Positions 3,394 to 42,922 of a stretch of DNA of 64,000 nucleotides are shown here, in pieces. The notes under the pieces were generated by a model. The model was not told the DNA's origin, did no database searches, and saw only the letters and a program-made list of their open reading frames with translations. The stretch's first letter is position 1, and the number at the start of each line of letters is the position of its first letter. A program made the translations under genes and the position numbers. Origin of the DNA: an uncultured Gammaproteobacteria bacterium (GTDB lineage: Bacteria; Pseudomonadota; Gammaproteobacteria; Steroidobacterales; Rariloculaceae); contig CAVUHM010000012.1 of assembly GCA_963741255.1 (NCBI GenBank), positions 6,957 through 70,956 on the forward strand. The letters are read 5' to 3'.

Positions 3394-3951
3394 ATGAAAC
3401 CGCTGAAGAAGAACGCGACTTACGACGACCTGCGCGAAGTGCCGGACCATTTCGTCGCCGAAATGTTCAGCGGCGACTTGTACGCATTCCCACGGCCGGC
3501 GCTTCCGCACGCACGCGCCGCAAGCGTGCTCGGCGGAATGCTGATGGGTCCATTCGATCAGGGCCGCAACGGCCCCGGCGGCTGGGTGATCTTGGACGAG
3601 CCGGAGCTGCACTTCGGCGACGACGTGCTCGTGCCGGATCTCGCGGGCTGGCGCCGCACGCGCCTGCCGGCGGTGCCGGCGGATGCGTATCTCACGCTCG
3701 CGCCGGATTGGGTGTGCGAGGTGTTGTCGGCATCCACCGAGAAAATCGATCGAGGCGCGAAGCTCCGGATCTACGCGCGCGAAGGAGTCGCGTACGCGTG
3801 GCTCATCGACCCGTTGCGGCAAACGCTCGAGGTGCTCGCGCTCGACGAGCGCAAGCGATGGGCTCCGCTTGGCGTGCTCGAGGGTCGTGACAACGTCCGC
3901 GCGGCGCCATTCGACGCGATCGAGCTAGAGCTTGGGAGCCTTTGGATCTGA
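3394..3951 (+). CDS. Uma2 family endonuclease (DUF820)
   Basis: 185-aa ORF with Uma2 motifs (VPDLAGW...APDWVCEVLSAST...D...K..IYAREGVAYAWLIDP). Confidence 0.8.
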   Translation: MKPLKKNATYDDLREVPDHFVAEMFSGDLYAFPRPALPHARAASVLGGMLMGPFDQGRNGPGGWVILDEPELHFGDDVLVPDLAGWRRTRLPAVPADAYLTLAPDWVCEVLSASTEKIDRGAKLRIYAREGVAYAWLIDPLRQTLEVLALDERKRWAPLGVLEGRDNVRAAPFDAIELELGSLWI

Positions 3952-3957
3952 CGGCGC

Positions 3958-5256
3958 TCAGTTCGCGGGCTCGATCCGCAGCACCGCGCCCTCGACTTCC
4001 GCGGTCAGCACGTACAGCAAACCGTCGGGTCCCTCGCGCACGTCGCGGATGCGCTGATTCAGCTCGCGCAGCAGCGTCTCGCGGCGGATCTCTTCCCAAC
4101 GGTCGTTGAACTCGATGCGCTGCAGCTGGCCCGTGCGCGGCACCTCGCCTTCGCGGAGCCCGCCGACGAACGCATTGCGGCGCCAGCCCGTGAACACGTC
4201 GCCCTGATAGAACGTCATGCCCGTGACCGCGATCGACGGCACCCAAAACACGAGCGGCTGCACCGTGCCTTCGAGCGTCGGGTTCGGCGACACACGCGGT
4301 CCGTTGTACACGCGCCCGTAGCTGACGAGCGGCCAGCCGTAGTTGCCGCCCTTCTGCAAGATGTTGATCTCGTCGCCGCCGTTCGGGCCCTGCTCCGTCG
4401 CCCACAGCTCGCCGGTCCACGGATTCAGCACCATCGAATGACCGTTGCGATGCCCGAGCGTCCAGATCGCGGGCAAGTAGCGCGAGTCGTTCACGAACGG
4501 GTTGTCGTTCGGAACGGTGCCGTCGTCGCGCAAGCGAATTGTTTTTCCGGCGTAGTCCTTCGGATCCTGCGAGCGCACGACGTCGGGCCCGACACCCGGC
4601 GCGCTGATCGTCATGTGCAGCATGCCGTCCGCCGCGAAACCGATCCGCGAGCCTTCCGTGCCGGTCGTGCCGCTCGTGAAGATGTCGCGCACGTCGACGA
4701 GCGCATCGTTCTCCCAGCGACCGCGCGCGATCATCGTTTCGCCCATGTTCTCGCCGGCCGGCCGGTGATACGACAAATACACGAAGCTGTTGTCCGCGAA
4801 ACTCGGGTGCAGCACGACGTCCATGAGTCCCTGCAATCCGCCCGTGCGCACCGTCGGCACGCCTTGGACCGGATCCTGCTGGAACACGCCGTTCTTGATC
4901 AGCCGCAGCCGGCCGGGCCGCTCGGTGACGAGCATGTCGCCGCCCGGCAGAAACGCGATCGACCACGGTTGCTCGAGACCGCGCGCGACGACCACGACGC
5001 GCAGGTTGCGATGCTCCGGTCGCACGGACTCGACGAGGAACGGCCCGGCGCCGAGCGGCGGCGACGGCCAACCGGTGCCGGGCGGAATGCCGGTGATCGC
5101 ACCGGGCACCTTGGCGGGATCGAGCGGCCACACCGACGGCGGCTGCGCGTGCCCGACCGCGATCGTAAACGCGAGCACGGCGGCCGCGGCGGCGCAGCGA
5201 ATCAAAGAATGACGTACAGCGGCCGTACCTGCACAGCGGATCAGAGCGTGACGCAT
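3958..5256 (-). CDS. PQQ-dependent sugar dehydrogenase (soluble aldose/sorbosone dehydrogenase family)
   Basis: ORF 3958..5445. The internal ATG at 5254-5256 is preceded by GGGGGGAA and followed by a signal peptide. The body has typical YliI-family blocks (PWSIAFLPGG..LVTER.GRLR, LGHRN, GGDEIN....GGNYGWP). Confidence 0.85.
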   Translation of the reverse strand: MRHALIRCAGTAAVRHSLIRCAAAAAVLAFTIAVGHAQPPSVWPLDPAKVPGAITGIPPGTGWPSPPLGAGPFLVESVRPEHRNLRVVVVARGLEQPWSIAFLPGGDMLVTERPGRLRLIKNGVFQQDPVQGVPTVRTGGLQGLMDVVLHPSFADNSFVYLSYHRPAGENMGETMIARGRWENDALVDVRDIFTSGTTGTEGSRIGFAADGMLHMTISAPGVGPDVVRSQDPKDYAGKTIRLRDDGTVPNDNPFVNDSRYLPAIWTLGHRNGHSMVLNPWTGELWATEQGPNGGDEINILQKGGNYGWPLVSYGRVYNGPRVSPNPTLEGTVQPLVFWVPSIAVTGMTFYQGDVFTGWRRNAFVGGLREGEVPRTGQLQRIEFNDRWEEIRRETLLRELNQRIRDVREGPDGLLYVLTAEVEGAVLRIEPAN

Positions 5257-11886: not shown

Positions 11887-11977
11887 GGTGACCCTCCTGG
11901 GTTTCTAGTGTCGTATCGAACCATAGTCGAACGACCCTGCGCCAAATCGACAACGAACGGTTCAGGGCGAGGCAAGA

Positions 11978-12049
11978 GGTGCCGGTGTTACGGTTCGGTT
12001 CAACCGAAGTGCCGGTGCTTCGGCTGAACCGAACCGTAACACCGGCACC
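11978..12049. repeat. REP-like nested palindrome, copy b (long form)
   Basis: The sequence is GGTGCCGGTGTTACGGTTCGGTTCAACCGAAGTGCCGGTGCTTCGGCTGAACCGAACCGTAACACCGGCACC. It has 24-bp outer arms plus an inner CCGAAG/CTTCGG stem, and lies in a divergent intergenic region. Confidence 0.85.
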
Positions 12050-12099
12050 GCTGGACGCTCGTCGGGCGCAAGGCAGCTGCGACGCAAAGGACCGCACCG

Positions 12100-22826: not shown

Positions 22827-22979
22827 TCGACACATCGAGGGGATGTGTCGAGGCAATCGACAGATAGATGCTACATGTCGAAAATCTGCGTGATTTTTCG
22901 ACATGTCTGGCCTGTCGGGTCGATCGAATCGACACGTCGCCGCTATATGTCGAAAAACACGCTGATTTTCGACAAGTAT
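22827..22979. promoter_or_regulatory. Array of TGTCGA/TCGACA sites (three palindromes plus half-sites) upstream of fic
   Basis: Three palindromes are present: TCGACACATCgagggGATGTGTCGA (22827-22851), ACATGTCGAAAATCtgcgtGATTTTTCGACATGT (22873-22906), and ATATGTCGAAAAacacgctgaTTTTCGACAAGTAT (22945-22979). Half-sites lie at 22857 and 22929. That makes 8 perfect hexamers in about 150 bp of low-GC DNA. Confidence 0.7.
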
Positions 22980-23037
22980 AGGCCGGCGGCCGCGCCAAAA
23001 GCCGTGAACCAGTTCTCACCGGGCTCGCGGGGGGCTT

Positions 23038-30325: not shown

Positions 30326-30337
30326 GCACAAGCCTTG

Positions 30338-30384
30338 GTGCCGGTGTTACGGTTTCGGTTCAACCGAACCGTAACGCCGGCACC
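30338..30384. repeat. REP-like nested palindrome, copy d
   Basis: The sequence is GGTGCCGGTGTTACGGTTTCGGTTCAACCGAACCGTAACGCCGGCACC. It lies between two convergent gene ends. Confidence 0.85.
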
Positions 30385-30386
30385 TC

Positions 30387-31914: not shown

Positions 31915-31986
31915 GGTGCCGGTGTTGCGGTTCGGTCGAACCGAAGTGCCGGTGTTTCGGTTCAACCGAACCGTAACACCGGCACC
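31915..31986. repeat. REP-like nested palindrome, copy e (long form)
   Basis: The sequence is GGTGCCGGTGTTGCGGTTCGGTCGAACCGAAGTGCCGGTGTTTCGGTTCAACCGAACCGTAACACCGGCACC. It lies between convergent gene ends. Confidence 0.85.
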
Positions 31987-31993
31987 ATCTGGA

Positions 31994-37277: not shown

Positions 37278-38760
37278 CTACTCCGCTGACAGCCGTTCGA
37301 TCAGGGCCGCCGTCTCGGGGTTCCCTTCCGCGAGCGCGACGTCGCGCGGCGTCGCGCCGTCCTTGCTCGTTTGTTTCGAGTCGAGCGGCGCGCCTTGGTC
37401 GTGCAAGTACTCGATGACTTCGTTCCAGCCTTGAAACGCCGCGCCGTGCGCGGGCGTGAGGCCGGCCACGCGCGCGCGCTGGAAACCGATCGAAAGCTCG
37501 GTCGTGCGGCCGTCGATGCTTGCACCGGCGGCAACCAGCAGCTTCATCGTCGCGACGGCGTCCGCGCCGGTCTTGTAGCGGCCGATGGTCGGGAACTCGC
37601 GGAACACCCCGTACCAGTGCCCCACTCCCGCCGCCGCCATGAACGGCGTGATGCCGAACACGTTCGCGGCATTGACGTTCGCGCCGTGCTCGAGCAAGAG
37701 CGTCACGGCCTCGTCGTCGCTGGCCTTCGCGGCCACGTGCAGCGCCGTCGCGCCAGGGCTCACGACGAGCACGTCGGGGCTGCCGTCCGTGAAGCCGCGG
37801 TCGCCGGGATCGTTCCGCAGCAGCGGCTGGTGCTTCAAGCGCATGTTCACGTTCGCGCCCCGCTCGATCAGTTGCCGCGCGACGTCGAGCCCCGTGTTCG
37901 AGTCGAGCGATGGCAGATCGCCGCGCCGGCTGTCCGGAATCCGGTTCAGCTCGATCGCGAGGTACAGCGGGCTCCTGCCCCACCAGTCCCACTGGTTCAC
38001 GTCGGCACCGTGCTCGATCAACGTTGCGGCCGTGTCGAACTGGCGGTTGTACAGCGCGAGCACGAGCGGCGTCATGCCGAACGGATCGGACAAGATCGAC
38101 GTCGGCACCGCCCGCGACGAGCGGCTCGACGCACGCGGCGCAGCCCTCGCGCGCGGCGTACAGCAGCGGCGTGAAGCCGCCGGTCTGCATGATCTTGATG
38201 CGCGGCTCGGCCGTCACGCGCCGCTCCCAGTCGTGCGTCGAGCCCGCGCGCGTCGACCTCGGCGCCGTGCGCGATCAGCAAGCGAATCATCGCGGGATGT
38301 TTCTGCGCCGCGGCCCACATCAGCGCGGTCTGGCCGCCGAAAGTCTCGCGCGCGTTCACGTTCGCGCCGCGCTCGAGCAGCAGCTTCGCGGTGTCGACGC
38401 GGCCCGTTCGCGCGACGACCATCAGCGCGGTCTGGCCTTCCGGGTTCGGCGACTCGACGTCGGCGCCGGCCTCGAGCAGCGCCTTCACGATCGCGGGGTC
38501 CGCCTCGACCGCCGCGGCCGCGAGCGCCGTCACGCCGTAGTCGTTGACGGCGTTCGTATCGGCCCCGCGCGCAATCAGCGCTTGCGACGAGCTCGACGTC
38601 GCCGCTGATGCGCCGCCCAAATCAACGCGGTCGCGCCATCCGCCCCGCGCGCATCGACCTCCGCGCCCTGCTCGATCAGCGCGATCGCCGCGTCGCGCTT
38701 CCCGAGCTCGACGAGCTCCGGCAGTGATTCCGCACCAAGAGCCGCTGCGCTGAGCATCAT
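37278..38760 (-). pseudogene. Ankyrin repeat protein (at least 3 frame changes)
   Basis: Ankyrin units (G.TPL..A......V..LL..GA.VN) are spread over minus ORFs 38575..39102 (tail), 38072..39061, 37270..38217 and 37278..38108. The start ATGATG at 38755-38760 is tentative. Confidence 0.7.
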
Positions 38761-38776
38761 CGCGAGTGCGGCGAGC

Positions 38777-38879
38777 GCACCGCGAATACTGCTCCCGAGA
38801 CACGCCGGAAGACCGTCCCTGGGGCTCGTGTGCGCACATCCCTGTGCGCACACGGTCTCGGGAGCAGTATTCGCGATGC
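38777..38879. repeat. Bulged long hairpin element, copy 1
   Basis: The outer arms are 38781-38801 and 38855-38875 (21 bp, perfect). A 25-nt bulge spans 38802-38826. The inner 12-bp stem is 38827-38838 / 38843-38854 with loop TCCC. Confidence 0.8.
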
Positions 38880-38952
38880 ACTCGCCGCCCGAGCCGGAGG
38901 TGGAACCTACCGCCCGAGCGGCGGAGAATCGCTGCGGGTGATGGCGGTGGCT

Positions 38953-39055
38953 GCATCTCGAGGGCCCTTCGCGAGACCGTCGGCGCACAGGGATGTGCGC
39001 CGACGAGCCCCAGGGATGGTCTTCCGGCGTGTCTCGCGAAGGGCCCTCGAGGTGC
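38953..39055. repeat. Bulged long hairpin element, copy 2 (inverted relative to copy 1)
   Basis: The outer arms are 38957-38977 and 39031-39051 (21 bp, perfect, plus 4 more pairs including one T-G). The inner stem is 38978-38989 / 38994-39005. The 25-nt bulge at 39006-39030 is the reverse complement of the copy 1 bulge (24/25). Confidence 0.8.
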
Positions 39056-39082
39056 GGCCACCGCCCGCGATGCACGGCCAAA

Positions 39083-40414
39083 TCAAACGGCCGCGAGATC
39101 ACCGGTGCTGTTGCCGAGCGATTCGACCGGCACGCCCGCGCGCGCGAGCAGCGTGAGGATCAGGTTCGCGTGCGGCGTGTCGGCTGCAAACTCGAGGTGC
39201 TGGCCACCGGCCAATGCGCCGTAGCCGCGCCCGAACACGACCGACGGCAGCGGATTCGCGTTGTGCAGGTTCGAGTCGCTCATGTTGCTGCCGTAGAGCA
39301 GGATCGCGTGATCGAGCAGCGAGCCGTCGCCGTCGGGCGTGCGTTGAAGCTTCTCGAGGAACCGCGCGAACACCGTCGAGTGATACGTCTGCACGACCGC
39401 GAGCCGCGCCAGCTTGTCCGGATTGTTCTGGTGGTGCGACAGCGGATGGAACGCCTCCGAGATCCCCACCTGGTTGTACGTGAGCATGCTGATCTCGGCC
39501 GCCATCATGAACGTGACACGATCCGCGTGAGCCCGGCCTGATACGCGAGCGCGGCGAGATCGAACATCAGGTTGATGTGCTCGTCGAATTCCTGCGGCAC
39601 GCCGGCCGGCGCGTCGGGCAGATCGAGCTTCGAGAAATCCTGGTCCGCCATCTTCAGCGCCTGACGCTCGATCTCGCGGACCGAGTCCAAGATACTCGGC
39701 CATCCGCGCTTGATCGGCGGGGCCGAGCTTGCCGCGCAACGACGACGCTTCGTCGTTCACGAGGTCGAGCAAGCTGTCGGTTTGCGCGGCGATCGCTTCG
39801 CGCTCGGCGGCCGTGTCGCCTTGGCCGAACAAGCGATAGAACAGCTTGCGCGGGTTGTGCTCCATCGGCAGCGGCTGACGCGCCGCGCGGAACGAGATCG
39901 TCGAGCCGAAGCCGCAGCCGAACTCGGGGCTGCACGCCTGGCCGCTGCCGGGCTTCACCTCGGTGCAGAGCTCGAGCGACGGGAACGGCGCGTCGGCGCC
40001 GATCGTGCGCGCCGCGATTTGATCGGCCGAGATGCCGCGCTCGGGGTCGTCGGTCTTCGGCCACAGCGGCGACGAGCACGACAGCCACGTGCCGGGATTC
40101 ACGCTGTGCACGCCGGCGCCCTCGGCCGCCTGGTTGCGCAGGCCGCTCACGATCGTCATGTCGGCTTTGAACGGCGCGAACGGCTCAAGAATCTGCGGCA
40201 GGTCGAACGCGCGGCCGGTCGCCACGGGACGCCAACGATCCATGACCGCGCCGTGCGGCAGGTAGAAAAAGCCGAGCTTCGGTTTCGGCGCGGCGGCCGT
40301 CTGCGCGAGCGCCGTACCCGCCGGAATCATCGCGTCGAGCAACGGCAGCGACATGGACACGCCGAGCCCGCGAAGCACGGTACGACGCGACAGGTGTTTC
40401 TTGCTGACGAACAT
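39083..40414 (-). pseudogene. DUF1552 domain protein with TAT-like signal (compensating frame changes around 39505-39700)
   Basis: ORF 39083..40465 from ATG 40414 (MFVSKKHLSRRTVLRGLGVSMSL). The conserved middle segment reads in ORF 39505..39690 (DSVREIERQ...EFDEHINLMFDLAALAYQAGLTRI), while the main frame is Arg/Ala junk there. Confidence 0.75.
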
Positions 40415-40433
40415 GCGCGATGCCCCCGGCAAC

Positions 40434-42922
40434 TCAGTCGCCGACCGCAACGGCCGTGAGCTCATCGGCCGGTTGCGAGGCGCCTTTCATCTGAAACTGC
40501 GCGCTCTCGACGATACCCCAAACCAGCGCCGAAAACCGGTAGTCGTCCTCCGCGGCCGCGCGCACGATGCCGCGCACCGTCGGCATGTCGGCGGGCCCAA
40601 GCGTGCGGCCGAGCGCGTAAGTCATTAATTTTTCGGTCAATGTCTGAACGAACTGGTCGGGCCGCGCGAGCAGCGCGCGCCGCAGCTCGACGGGACCGGT
40701 CACGACCGTGCCGTCGATCAGCACGCCCGACGCGTCGATCGGGGCGCGGGCCTCGCGGTCGACGACTCGCCAACGGCCGACCGCATCGAAGTTTTCGAGC
40801 GCGAAGCCGAGCGGATCGATGACGCCGTGGCACGCGTTGCACGACGGATTCGTGCGGTGCGCCTCGAGCCGCGCGCGCACCGTGCTCGCGGCCTGGCCTT
40901 CGACGGTCTCGACGAGCGCCTCGACGTTCGGCGGCGGCGACTCCGGCGGGACCCCAAGCACGTTCTCGAGCAGCCACTGGCCGCGCAGCACGGGCGACGT
41001 GCGGTTCGGATACGACGACGCGAGCAGCACGCCGCCCTTGCCGAGCAGCCCGAAGCGGTTCTGCGTCGGCGAGCTCGACGCGGCGGAAGCGCGTGCCGCG
41101 CACGTCGTCGACGCCGTAGTGGCGCGCGAGCGTCTCGTTCGCGAACGTGTAGCTCGCCGTCAAGAGATCGAGCACGGACTGCGTCGGAGCGAAAGACGCT
41201 GTCGACGAACAGCGTGAGCTCCGTGACGAAGTGCTGCGCGGATCTGCCGGTCGACGTCGGCGAACACGGACGGATCGGGCGCGAGGCCGTCGAGCTCGCC
41301 CAAGTTCAGCCACTGGTACGCGAAGTTCGTCGCGAGCGTCTCGGCACGCGGGTCGGCGAGCATGCGCTCGACTTGGCGCAAGAGCACGGTCGGGTCCTGC
41401 AGCTCGCCGCGCGGCCGCGAGCTCGAGCAGCTCGGCGTCCGGGATCGAGCTCCATAAGAAGAATGAGAGCCGCGACGCGAGCTCGACGCCGCTCAGGGAG
41501 TAGCGTCGCACCGGGCGCCGTGCCTTCCGGGCGCCGGCTCGAAGCGATACAGGAACTTCGGGTGCGCGAGCACGCCCGACGAGCGCGTACTTGACGCCCT
41601 CCTCGAAACCGCCGGCCTCGTGACCCGAGTCGTACAGCCGCATCAGGCGCGGCAGATCGTCGGCCGTGAATGCGCCGCGGAACGCCTCGCTCGCGAGCGC
41701 GGCGACGATCCGCTCCGCGCAGGGTCGTTCGGCAACGCTCCTGCGTTGCTCTACCGCGGGCATCCCTGCCCGCGTCCTCTGCGGCGACCTCGGGGCGGCA
41801 CGCGAAGATCTTCGTGCGGCTCGGCGTCTCGCTCAAACCCGTGGCGCGCGACGGGACCGAACACCTCGACCGAGTTCAGCGTGAGCACGGTGTCCTGGCC
41901 GCCGCCGGGCACGAGCGCGTAGAGCTGCCGATCGGATTCCGCGAACGAGCGGTGCAGGAACGTCACGCCGAGCCGGTGCACGCCCGCGGTCGCGGTGAAC
42001 GGAATGTTCTTCAGGCGCGCGTTGATCTTGTCGACGGCCGGCGCGCCGATCTGATCGAGCTCCTTCAAATCTTCACCGCCGCCGATGTCGAGCTCGAAGA
42101 ATCTGCGGCCGTCGAGCACCGCGATCACGGTGGCCTTGTGCTCTTGGTTGAAGCCCCAGAGTCCCGTCACGAGATCGCCGATGTTGAGCCGGTACTCGCC
42201 GTCGGCCGGAAAGTGGTGCTCGATCAGCGCGCCGCCGCGCGTGCCGAGCGGCAGACCCTCGACGTGAAACTGCTGCGCGCGCGCGTTGCCGATCGTGTAC
42301 GGCACGCCGACCGCGCGCGGTGCAGCGTTGCCGACCGCTTGCGCGCTCAGATTGCGGGCGGCGCTCAAGAACTGATCGATGAACGACGGGCGATACCGTG
42401 AGCGCGCTCGCGATGTTGTCGAAGCCTGCGGCCGAGCCGTCGACCGGCAACAGCGTCGCGGGATCGACCTCGAGCGCCAGCAGATCGCGAATCGCATTCG
42501 CGTACTCCGTGCGATTCATGCTGTGCGGCGTGACGTAGCCGGGCTCCGGCGTCGGCGCTGCCGCGTCGAGGCTCGCCTCGAGCCACGCGACGAACGCATC
42601 GACCTCCGCGTTGTCGGGCTTCACTCCGCCCGGCGGCGGCATCATGCGGCCGCGCAGCTTGCGCACGGCGCGCTCCCAGACTTCCGCGTGCGCGCCGATC
42701 GTCGTCGCGGCTTCAAGCGCGTCGAAGTCGATGTCGGCCGTGAGATCGGTGTCGTTGTGGCACTCGTAGCAGTAGTTGCTCGACGAACGGCCAACGCTCG
42801 CCGGTTTCGGCGCGCAGATCCTCGGGCGACGGCGCGCCGCCGCAACCCGCGAGCGCGAGCGCGACGGCGCACGCGGCCGCAGCGCGCCGCGCGCTAAGCG
42901 ATGTTGCGCAACCGCGTGTCAT
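40434..42922 (-). pseudogene. DUF1592/DUF1588/DUF1585-type protein with N-terminal haem-c-like CxxCH motif (many frame changes)
   Basis: The lipoprotein-like start MTRGCATSLSARRAAAACAVALALAGC is at ATG 42922. YCYECH is encoded near 42760. Conserved pieces lie in minus ORFs 42073..42666, 41751..42497, 41306..41836, 40462..41763 and 40434..41030. Confidence 0.7.

Follow-up and report, generated by a model that had tools for sequence, protein, structure and literature searches.

ERIC/IRU elements are imperfect palindromes of about 125 nt that lie between genes, are often co-transcribed, and have longer variants produced by insertion at fixed internal sites. The repetitive extragenic palindromic (REP) elements and the REPINs, which RAYT (Y1 HUH) transposases mobilize, are built from palindromic units of 20-40 nt; miniature inverted-repeat transposable elements (MITEs) are deletion derivatives of DDE-type insertion sequences (ISs); and integron attC sites are read by their fold, as single-stranded hairpins in which unpaired bases set the active strand. 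The element analyzed in this work shares features with all of them. It was found as an inverted pair (doublet) of large bulged hairpins in a 64,000-nt stretch (hereafter, the window) of contig CAVUHM010000012.1 from an uncultured gammaproteobacterium, between a DUF1552 gene and an ankyrin gene. With moderate confidence, we lean towards reading this interval as two copies, with their bulges outward, of a non-autonomous mobile palindromic DNA repeat that resembles REP/REPIN, ERIC and MITE elements.

Like the REP/REPIN elements, the repeat described here has many extragenic copies per genome, consists of palindromic units that also form inverted doublets in one fixed arrangement (although doublets are the minority of copies here), is lineage-restricted, and is kept at orthologous sites. 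REPs are known targets of ISs (PMC1525189), and in REPINs the sequence-specific part is conserved while the hairpin part varies, compensatory changes being common in it (PMC3116915); both features recur in our repeat. In contrast to REPs, the unit is 125-180 nt long, and its conserved part is an apical bulge and hairpin of 53 nt enclosed within a free-sequence stem of ~35 bp. Each copy pairs with itself, whereas the doublet partners of a REPIN pair with each other. There is no GT(A/G)G tetranucleotide and no GTAG at the foot of the hairpin, and no RAYT gene was found by tblastn with E. coli RayT in 113 genome loci of the repeat and the window.

In common with the ERIC/IRU, Correia, RUP, BOX and RPE repeats, there is a long variant, here with 48-51 extra nucleotides in the loop. 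The likeness to ERIC is one of size, palindromic form and loop-insertion variants only; the host clade is a different one, and the arms are far more variable in our repeat. Correia elements and MITEs differ from it in having a terminal inverted repeat and a target duplication. We know of no counterpart among the ERIC-type repeats for its large invariant asymmetric bulge. Insertion polymorphism at orthologous sites is shared with MITEs, but the outer ends of our repeat are its most variable part, and the ends of the IS30-like and IS110-like elements associated with it are unrelated to its arms. In both attC sites and our repeat, the palindrome varies in sequence but stays paired. However, conservation in attC sites is at the stem base, in the R and L boxes, and variation at the apex, the reverse of the present element, and they are arrayed beside intI, whereas our copies are dispersed between housekeeping genes. 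The original prediction did not recognize the element as an attC site, and it is not one: its apex is conserved, its base is variable, and GTTRRRY is absent.

One further system is a process rather than an element family. Template switching, or quasipalindrome correction, is a known mutational process reported to homogenize the arms of inverted repeats; one event suffices to make a perfect stem in which substitutions and indels are fully compensated, and the spacer may be inverted as well (PMC8604942, PMC8794818). The matched indels and the compensation among near-identical copies reported below are in line with this process, which accounts for the persistence of paired stems but leaves the conserved core and the spread of copies unexplained. 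Because it lacks defining features of REP/REPIN elements (unit size, tetranucleotide and pairing between doublet partners), of MITEs (terminal repeats and target duplication) and of attC sites, we place the repeat among the non-autonomous palindromic intergenic repeats, outside any known family, and the family has apparently not been described so far.

The hairpin doublet of the window

The original prediction for this locus had described two bulged hairpins in opposite orientation, and both were found again at every coordinate and count, including those of the arms, the bulge, the inner stem and the TCCC loop. Copy 1 has its sequence on the plus strand. Its outer stem is formed by two arms of 34 nt (38768-38801 and 38855-38888) that are 94% complementary and contain perfect arms of 21 bp (38781-38801 / 38855-38875). 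According to per-position conservation, the core-proximal CCCGAGAC of the 5' arm is kept family-wide, and the remainder of this arm is copy-specific. The 5' arm is followed by an unpaired bulge of 25 nt (38802-38826) with the sequence ACGCCGGAAGACCGTCCCTGGGGCT, which is the near-invariant signature of the family, and by an inner hairpin with a 12-bp stem (38827-38838 / 38843-38854) and a TCCC loop (38839-38842). Directly outside the base of copy 1 lies a CATCGCG motif on the plus strand (38758-38764), mirrored at 39066-39072. At copy 1, this motif overlaps the start of the ankyrin gene (ATG ATG; 38760, minus strand).

A spacer (38889-38942) separates the two copies; spacers are not conserved among doublets. 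Copy 2 is read on the minus strand, where its 5' arm (39031-39065; GGCGGTGGCCGCACCTCGA, of the type we call subfamily 1) and 3' arm (38943-38977) are 35 nt long and 94% complementary, its 25-nt bulge (39006-39030) is ACGCCGGAAGACCATCCCTGGGGCT, and its inner hairpin (38978-39005) has a loop that appears as GGGA on the plus strand. The flank of copy 2 (39066-39082), TTTGGCCGTGCATCGCG on the minus strand, comes directly after the stop codon of the DUF1552 gene (39083-40465, minus strand) and represents the left part of an outer layer (GTCGTGTCTCACTTTGGCCG ... CGGCCAAAGTGAGACACGAC) of subfamily 1. A covariance model of the family detects copy 1 at 38764-38892 on the plus strand (135 bits) and copy 2 at 38940-39068 on the minus strand (138 bits).

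A recount of the two bulges gave the same 24 of 25 positions identical as reverse complements, and there is no third match in the 64 kb at up to three mismatches; at this threshold, none of 100 shuffled windows contained a match. Between the two copies, 8 of the 21 outer-stem positions and 2 of the 12 inner-stem positions are different, and checking by hand confirmed that every difference is compensated on the partner arm. The two copies come from different arm lineages. Together they make up the imperfect palindrome that had been placed near 38916: it spans 38763-39069, is centered at 38916, and has arms of 127 nt with 77% complementarity. Either strand is predicted to fold at about -242 kcal/mol, which corresponds to z-scores of -14.6 and -15.7 relative to shuffles. 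A scan of the interval for sigma-70 promoters and intrinsic terminators found none. Provided that the reading as a mobile repeat is correct, the 320-nt interval is to be annotated as two repeat copies and not as a small RNA gene.

A dispersed repeat family of soil Gammaproteobacteria

The original prediction had named the lack of further copies among the conditions under which the element would be uninteresting. To the contrary, the bulge motif is carried by more than 230 loci elsewhere, in metagenome-assembled genomes (MAGs) of at least 13 species of soil Gammaproteobacteria and in soil, bog and sediment metagenomes. An exact match to CCGGAAGACCNTCCCTGGGG, searched with one genome per species, gave at least 113 loci in genome contigs, nearly all of them from 13 MAG species of uncultured soil Gammaproteobacteria, one of which is labelled Steroidobacteraceae; at least 26 of the analyzed copies belong to a single fragmented MAG. 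A slightly longer motif gave at least 120 loci in JGI metagenome contigs. The few matches to CCGGAAGACCNTCCCTGGGG in other phyla are coincidences within coding sequences, without a hairpin. Indexing by short words detected a core of ~70 nt with unrelated flanks in sequencing runs from soil, bog, wetland and sediment, and found the window's own locus in no public run. There was no match to the element in plasmid and phage collections.

The search for relatives with a covariance model, as had been proposed, was made with a model built from 66 copies (R1). With it, 108 copies were detected in the window together with the genome loci, and 105 in the first 100 metagenome loci. The original prediction had not recognized the element as a known RNA family; in agreement, a scan of Rfam 15 with E-values up to 10 returned only matches far below threshold, to plant miRNA models with long hairpins (one scored 42 bits, its gathering cutoff being 268).

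Conserved core and variable stem

Each copy has the same layout, with an outer stem of ~35 bp, the 25-nt bulge, an inner stem of 12 bp and the TCCC loop. The outer stem is highly variable, yet ~95% Watson-Crick paired. When its positions are numbered outward from the core, positions 1-9 are conserved (TYCCGAGAC / GTCTCGGRA), while positions 10-34 have entropies of 1.0-1.8 bits, contain all four Watson-Crick pair types and are paired in 87-100% of cases, with the exception of positions 22-27, where one abundant lineage has fixed mismatches. Pairing is at background beyond approximately position 36, and the stem length is held at ~34-46 bp. In the 66-copy alignment, 93% of cells pair (68% in shuffles) and 717 cells are changed on both sides (~197 in shuffles), and sliding the partner column by 1-3 positions lowers the pairing to 32-46%. 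There is hardly any variation in the bulge or at the top of the inner hairpin, whose stem covaries in its lower half, and the 8-mer CATCCCTG is present both in the bulge and in the loop. The same anatomy and pairing pattern were seen in 69 non-redundant metagenome copies, taken as an independent set. Sequence is fixed only in the asymmetric core of 53 nt, composed of the bulge and the inner hairpin, and in the adjoining ~9 bp; elsewhere in the ~35-bp stem almost any sequence is possible, provided that the arms pair.

The two window copies alone had been taken to indicate selection on structure, in a candidate structured RNA or DNA element with a binding site in its unpaired segment. Of these proposals, the last agrees with the finding that the 25-nt bulge is the most conserved part, as would fit a sequence-specific site. 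The notion of a structure-constrained element with a conserved unpaired core, which probably binds a protein, also holds, and pairing is kept without sequence across more than 170 copies. On the other hand, compensation need not mean selection on an RNA fold, and the doublet has turned out to be one of a large dispersed repeat family.

Approximately one quarter of the copies represent the long variant, in which the 48-51 extra loop nucleotides form two further hairpins with covarying stems. This insert is a separate REP-like unit that also occurs alone in tandem arrays at three loci (L039, L070 and L073). The unit is ~50 nt long with two hairpins (CGACCGCCATGGATGGCGGGAGTGCCGCAAATGCAGGACGCAATTTGCGGC), and its arrays are located at 2753-2860 of L070, at 4171-4280 of L073, and on the minus strand of L039 at ~3918-4020 in reverse-complement coordinates. 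Many copies of subfamily 1, the lineage of copy 2 of the window, are wrapped in the further inverted repeat GTCGTGTCTCACTTTGGCCG ... CGGCCAAAGTGAGACACGAC, and some of them carry one more palindromic layer outside it. The CATCGC(G) motif next to the base of the stem recurs in many copies, at both flanks. No sequence beyond the hairpin is conserved family-wide.

Several side observations concern the architecture of individual copies. A third palindromic family (GAAAATAGGGACATGNTACTTTTC and relatives) is present as an extra outer layer in the flanks of L012, L065, L022, L037 and L135, and in L135 a palindrome of this type takes the place of the inner hairpin, which suggests that palindromic elements insert nested into each other's centers. 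The copies in L042 and L092, with arms from different lineages and no pairing past ~14-16 bp, look like recombinants between copies. In addition, several genomes contain a core sub-lineage with the bulge ACGCCAAGACGCCATCCCTGGGGCT and with CCGGGGG/CCCCCGG replacing the adjacent CGAGAC/GTCTCG. It is represented by L010 351-479, L113 1068-1195, L017 1430-1558 and L005 7564-7694; three of these four partner a standard-core copy in a doublet, and the copy in L005 is alone.

Compensatory changes and the two strands

The stem changes were compared among closely related copies. Pairs of copies with no more than three stem differences contain 59 compensated and 37 single-arm differences, and independent second mutations are therefore insufficient to explain compensation over such a short divergence. 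The orthologous copies in L044 and L047 differ at 10 stem pairs, all of them compensated, with the core nearly unchanged. In each of three copies with a 1-bp insertion in one arm, the insertion is matched in the other arm. G·U pairs are rare on the strand that has the bulge 5' of the inner hairpin (the bulge-5' strand), on which changes from G-C to G-U number about a dozen compared with the 717 two-sided cells of the 66-copy alignment. Given the compensation between near-identical copies, the matched insertions, the rarity of G·U and the absence of a preferred orientation relative to genes (see below), a DNA-level palindrome is favored, and from comparisons of this kind the compensated stem changes appear best explained at the level of DNA.

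The two strands are not equivalent. A hand tally of mismatches on the bulge-5' strand of the genome set (positions 1-21 and 28-34) gave ~44 A·C and C·A against 10 G·T and T·G, and the independent metagenome set gave 59 against 13. The opposite strand pairs better (95.3% vs 93.0% overall, and 95.8% vs 92.3% in the outer helix) because the transition mismatches are mostly A·C and C·A on the bulge-5' strand. A strand-specific single-stranded DNA intermediate and an RNA of minus orientation would both give this asymmetry.

Gain and loss of copies and their genomic context

Orthologous regions in different genomes were identified by all-against-all BLAST of the loci. Filled and empty orthologous sites were found for L014/L100 (140 nt vs 9 nt), L005/L091, L028/L057 and L072, and L093/L107. 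The empty sites contain neither arm, and those that correspond to the subfamily-1 copy of L028 also lack the outer inverted repeat, so that whole hairpins are gained or lost at orthologous sites. The possibility that the variable arms are taken from the target, as pre-existing hairpins or copied flanks, is ruled out in general by empty sites without both arms. Some outward growth of the palindrome is hinted at by L093 and by the distal arm of window copy 1. The copies in L008 and L053 differ at two stem positions and have unrelated flanks; likewise, one MAG contains copies that are two to three stem positions apart in unrelated flanks. In the window, the DUF1552 and ankyrin genes are 320 nt apart, whereas in L037 and L016 the gaps between their homologues measure 0 and 14 nt. 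This tight junction in the relatives indicates that the window doublet was inserted between the two genes.

Almost all copies are intergenic, between convergent (24), tandem (38) or divergent (10) genes. In tandem settings the element follows the orientation of the genes in 17 cases and opposes it in 12, and there is no orientation bias. Close doublets are without exception arranged as plus then minus, with the bulges outward (28 of 28; 16 in the genome loci and the window, and 12 in the metagenome loci), and in two further doublets of this arrangement (L060 and L117) one partner is interrupted by an IS. The spacers of doublets are 20-151 nt long and mutually unrelated, and the arms of the partners are sometimes related and sometimes not. 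Singlets are intact and more numerous than doublets. Between L029 (1500-1880) and L108 (400-760), the whole doublet is inverted together with ~20 nt of flank, within surroundings from two species that are collinear over 6.9 kb with ~88% identity. The orthologous sites of L027 and L063 were compared for flipping of the core in place, and their arms are very different.

The apical loop as an insertion site

The apical loop is the exact insertion point (TCC^C) of a 1.2-kb IS of the IS30 family, which occurs there in both orientations and is accompanied by a duplication of 2 bp (GG/CC). At least six such junctions were found (L060, where the IS occupies 483-1693, L003, L080, L097, L208 and L225), from one MAG and from metagenome contigs. 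This IS has inverted ends of ~25 bp (TGCGATCTCAAC...) and encodes a transposase with HTH_38 and rve domains and a GHWEGD motif. The same apical loop in L117 contains an IS110-family element (64-1185; DEDD_Tnp_IS110 and Transposase_20), with a CT dinucleotide on both sides (CACATCC-CT-TGTATC ... CAGTTG-CT-GTGCGC), and the REP-like unit of the long variant occupies the same site as the ISs. A link between the IS30-like transposase and the hairpin arms was considered and rejected, the ends of this IS being unrelated to the arms, as are those of the IS110-like element. As a side observation, the IS110-family element of L117 has a non-coding left end of 170 nt, a candidate place for a bridge RNA aimed at the hairpin loop.

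Proposed mode of spread and alternative explanations

We propose that the element would act as DNA, in the form of an extruded hairpin that presents the fixed core. Extrusion would expose both the bulge and the apical hairpin as single strands to a putative sequence-specific recombinase or transposase acting in trans, and one strand, with the bulge 3' of the inner hairpin, may matter more than the other. The pairing of the arms could be kept by two processes. Only well-paired copies would propagate, and the arms may undergo templated correction by each other, through template switching or hairpin mismatch repair, so that a one-arm change would become a compensated pair at once. Selfish mobile DNA is thus a more probable description of the repeat than a one-off regulatory RNA. 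The window doublet, which parts two genes that adjoin or overlap in relatives, probably has no host function. In a bolder form of this proposal, which we consider improbable, the repeat would be a new kind of mobile DNA specified by structure: only the asymmetric 53-nt core would be read as sequence, the ~35-bp stem would serve as a free-sequence clamp that extrudes the core and displays it as single-stranded DNA, propagation would include the re-copying of one arm from its partner, an enzyme family not yet linked to bacterial repeats would move the element, and the loop would dock IS30- and IS110-family elements. Matched indels and instant compensation would then be due to the re-copying of arms within propagation.

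If the main reading, that of a non-autonomous mobile repeat, holds, bacterial palindromic repeats would extend beyond the short REPs, and the free stem with its fixed apical core would offer a natural system for the recognition and copying of hairpin DNA. The family would also supply clean data for telling templated DNA 'compensation' from selection on RNA structure, and a warning for RNA discovery based on covariation. Moreover, it would define a precise and reused insertion site for IS30- and IS110-family elements in uncultured soil Gammaproteobacteria.

A number of results weigh against a mobile DNA repeat. Target-site duplications at the base of the stem are at chance level (none in 89 copies for k=4, and 3 of 89 for k=3), comparisons of empty and filled sites revealed no target duplication, and there is no conserved terminal inverted repeat, the outer ends being the most variable part; the lack of both features makes a classical DDE-type MITE mechanism unlikely. 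No mobilizing enzyme emerged: with E. coli RayT as the tblastn query, the hits in the 113 genome loci and the window did not exceed chance, and weak hits in L110 and L047 fall in a gene that we take, from reading the translation by eye, to be that of haem O synthase. A composite or autonomous element was also considered and rejected, since the genes between distant '+ ... -' pairs are housekeeping genes, presumably lepA, rseA and sdhB in L064, nrdR, glyA and ettA in L030, and a gene for a DUF72 protein in L135 (all assigned by eye from translations). The loci were retrieved via an exact match to the bulge, so that the conservation of the core is partly by construction, and copies found by the covariance model alone have diverged bulges. 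Covarying stems with conserved unpaired regions are the classic signature of a functional RNA; approximately 3% of stem pairs on the minus strand are G·U, which is not abnormal for RNA; and the core is present in contigs of at least six metatranscriptome assemblies, which are unstranded and of low depth and could represent read-through transcripts or carried-over DNA. Finally, there is a weak association between the orientation of the element and the sign of the local GC skew (62 vs 36 among 98 singlet-bearing loci, p ~0.01-0.04, with ~0.01 from a sign test), which hints at an orientation bias relative to replication.

Some of these points would also suit a family of structured non-coding RNAs with the sequence of the minus orientation (bulge 3' of the inner hairpin), in which the bulge, the loop and internal loops bind a protein or ligand, selection on the RNA fold maintains the stems, and multiplication occurred by riding on, or being, a mobile element, as HEARO and omega RNAs do. 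In favor of this explanation, the unpaired regions are conserved, and covariation extends to all stems, those of the two additional hairpins in the long variant among them. Most mismatches of the transition type are G·U when read on the minus strand, the predicted fold is very stable, and contigs with the core are present in the metatranscriptome assemblies. We nevertheless consider such an RNA unlikely. Both orientations relative to the flanking genes occur, and the one that would give read-through of the minus strand is not in excess; neither a conserved promoter nor a terminator was seen, and family-wide conservation ends at the hairpin. One-sided changes from G-C to G-U still amount to less than 10% of the two-sided changes, and the matched indels and the compensation between near-identical copies are explained more easily by DNA templating. 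To this can be added the lack of an Rfam match and the possibility of DNA carry-over in the unstranded, low-depth RNA contigs.

Another explanation is that the copies are DNA sites kept by the host, either as cruciforms or palindromes bound by a nucleoid, topology or recombination protein or as 'landing pads' by which ISs are diverted to harmless positions between genes. Host roles of this kind have been proposed for REP/BIME elements. Such sites would account for the strictly intergenic location with an excess at the 3' ends of genes, for orthologous copies that persist between species at 80-90% identity, for the repeated and exact entry of IS30-like and IS110-like elements and of the REP-like unit into the apical loop, and for the near-exclusive Watson-Crick pairing, which is expected if both strands or the duplex matter. 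However, presence or absence at orthologous sites and bursts of near-identical copies per genome look selfish, the asymmetry of mismatches between strands is unexpected for a site read purely as duplex, targeting by ISs needs no selection for that role, and we know of no candidate binding protein; we therefore rate host-kept sites as quite unlikely. The chance that the repeat belongs to a described structure-defined class, namely integron attC sites, retron msd or IS200/IS605 ends, appears very slight. Variable sequence with a conserved fold is typical of attC sites, and some msDNAs form long hairpins of ~125 nt, but attC sites are conserved at the base of the stem, in place of the apex conserved here, no GTTRRRY core site, cassette array or nearby intI was found, and no reverse transcriptase or TnpA/TnpB gene adjoins any copy examined. 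Least probable of all, to a point where it can practically be dismissed, is a recent local inverted duplication without relatives elsewhere. It would fit the presence of only two copies within the window, but is refuted by the more than 230 motif loci, and the eight differences at 21 stem positions and the separate arm lineages of the window copies also contradict it.

Neighboring gene and other repeats in the window

The ankyrin gene next to copy 1 (37920-38760, minus strand) aligns to its homologue in L016 in three frames, with shifts near 38580-38615, 38245 and 38090. The gene has a shortened signal-peptide region, of which the remainder (IRGALAALA...) overlaps the distal arm of copy 1. Either this is a pseudogene that may have decayed once the doublet had inserted, or the assembly contains indel errors.

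The window also contains a second, unrelated family of palindromes, GGTGCCGGTGTTACGGTTCGGTTCAACCGAAG...CTTCGGCTGAACCGAACCGTAACACCGGCACC, with near-perfect stems of ~25 bp. It has three copies (11977-12050, 31915-31987 and 30337-30385), one of them shortened. In addition, an AT-rich segment at 22870-22980 (47% GC, in a window of otherwise ~68% GC) comprises a pair of related hairpins based on CATGTCGAAAA..TTTTCGACATG.

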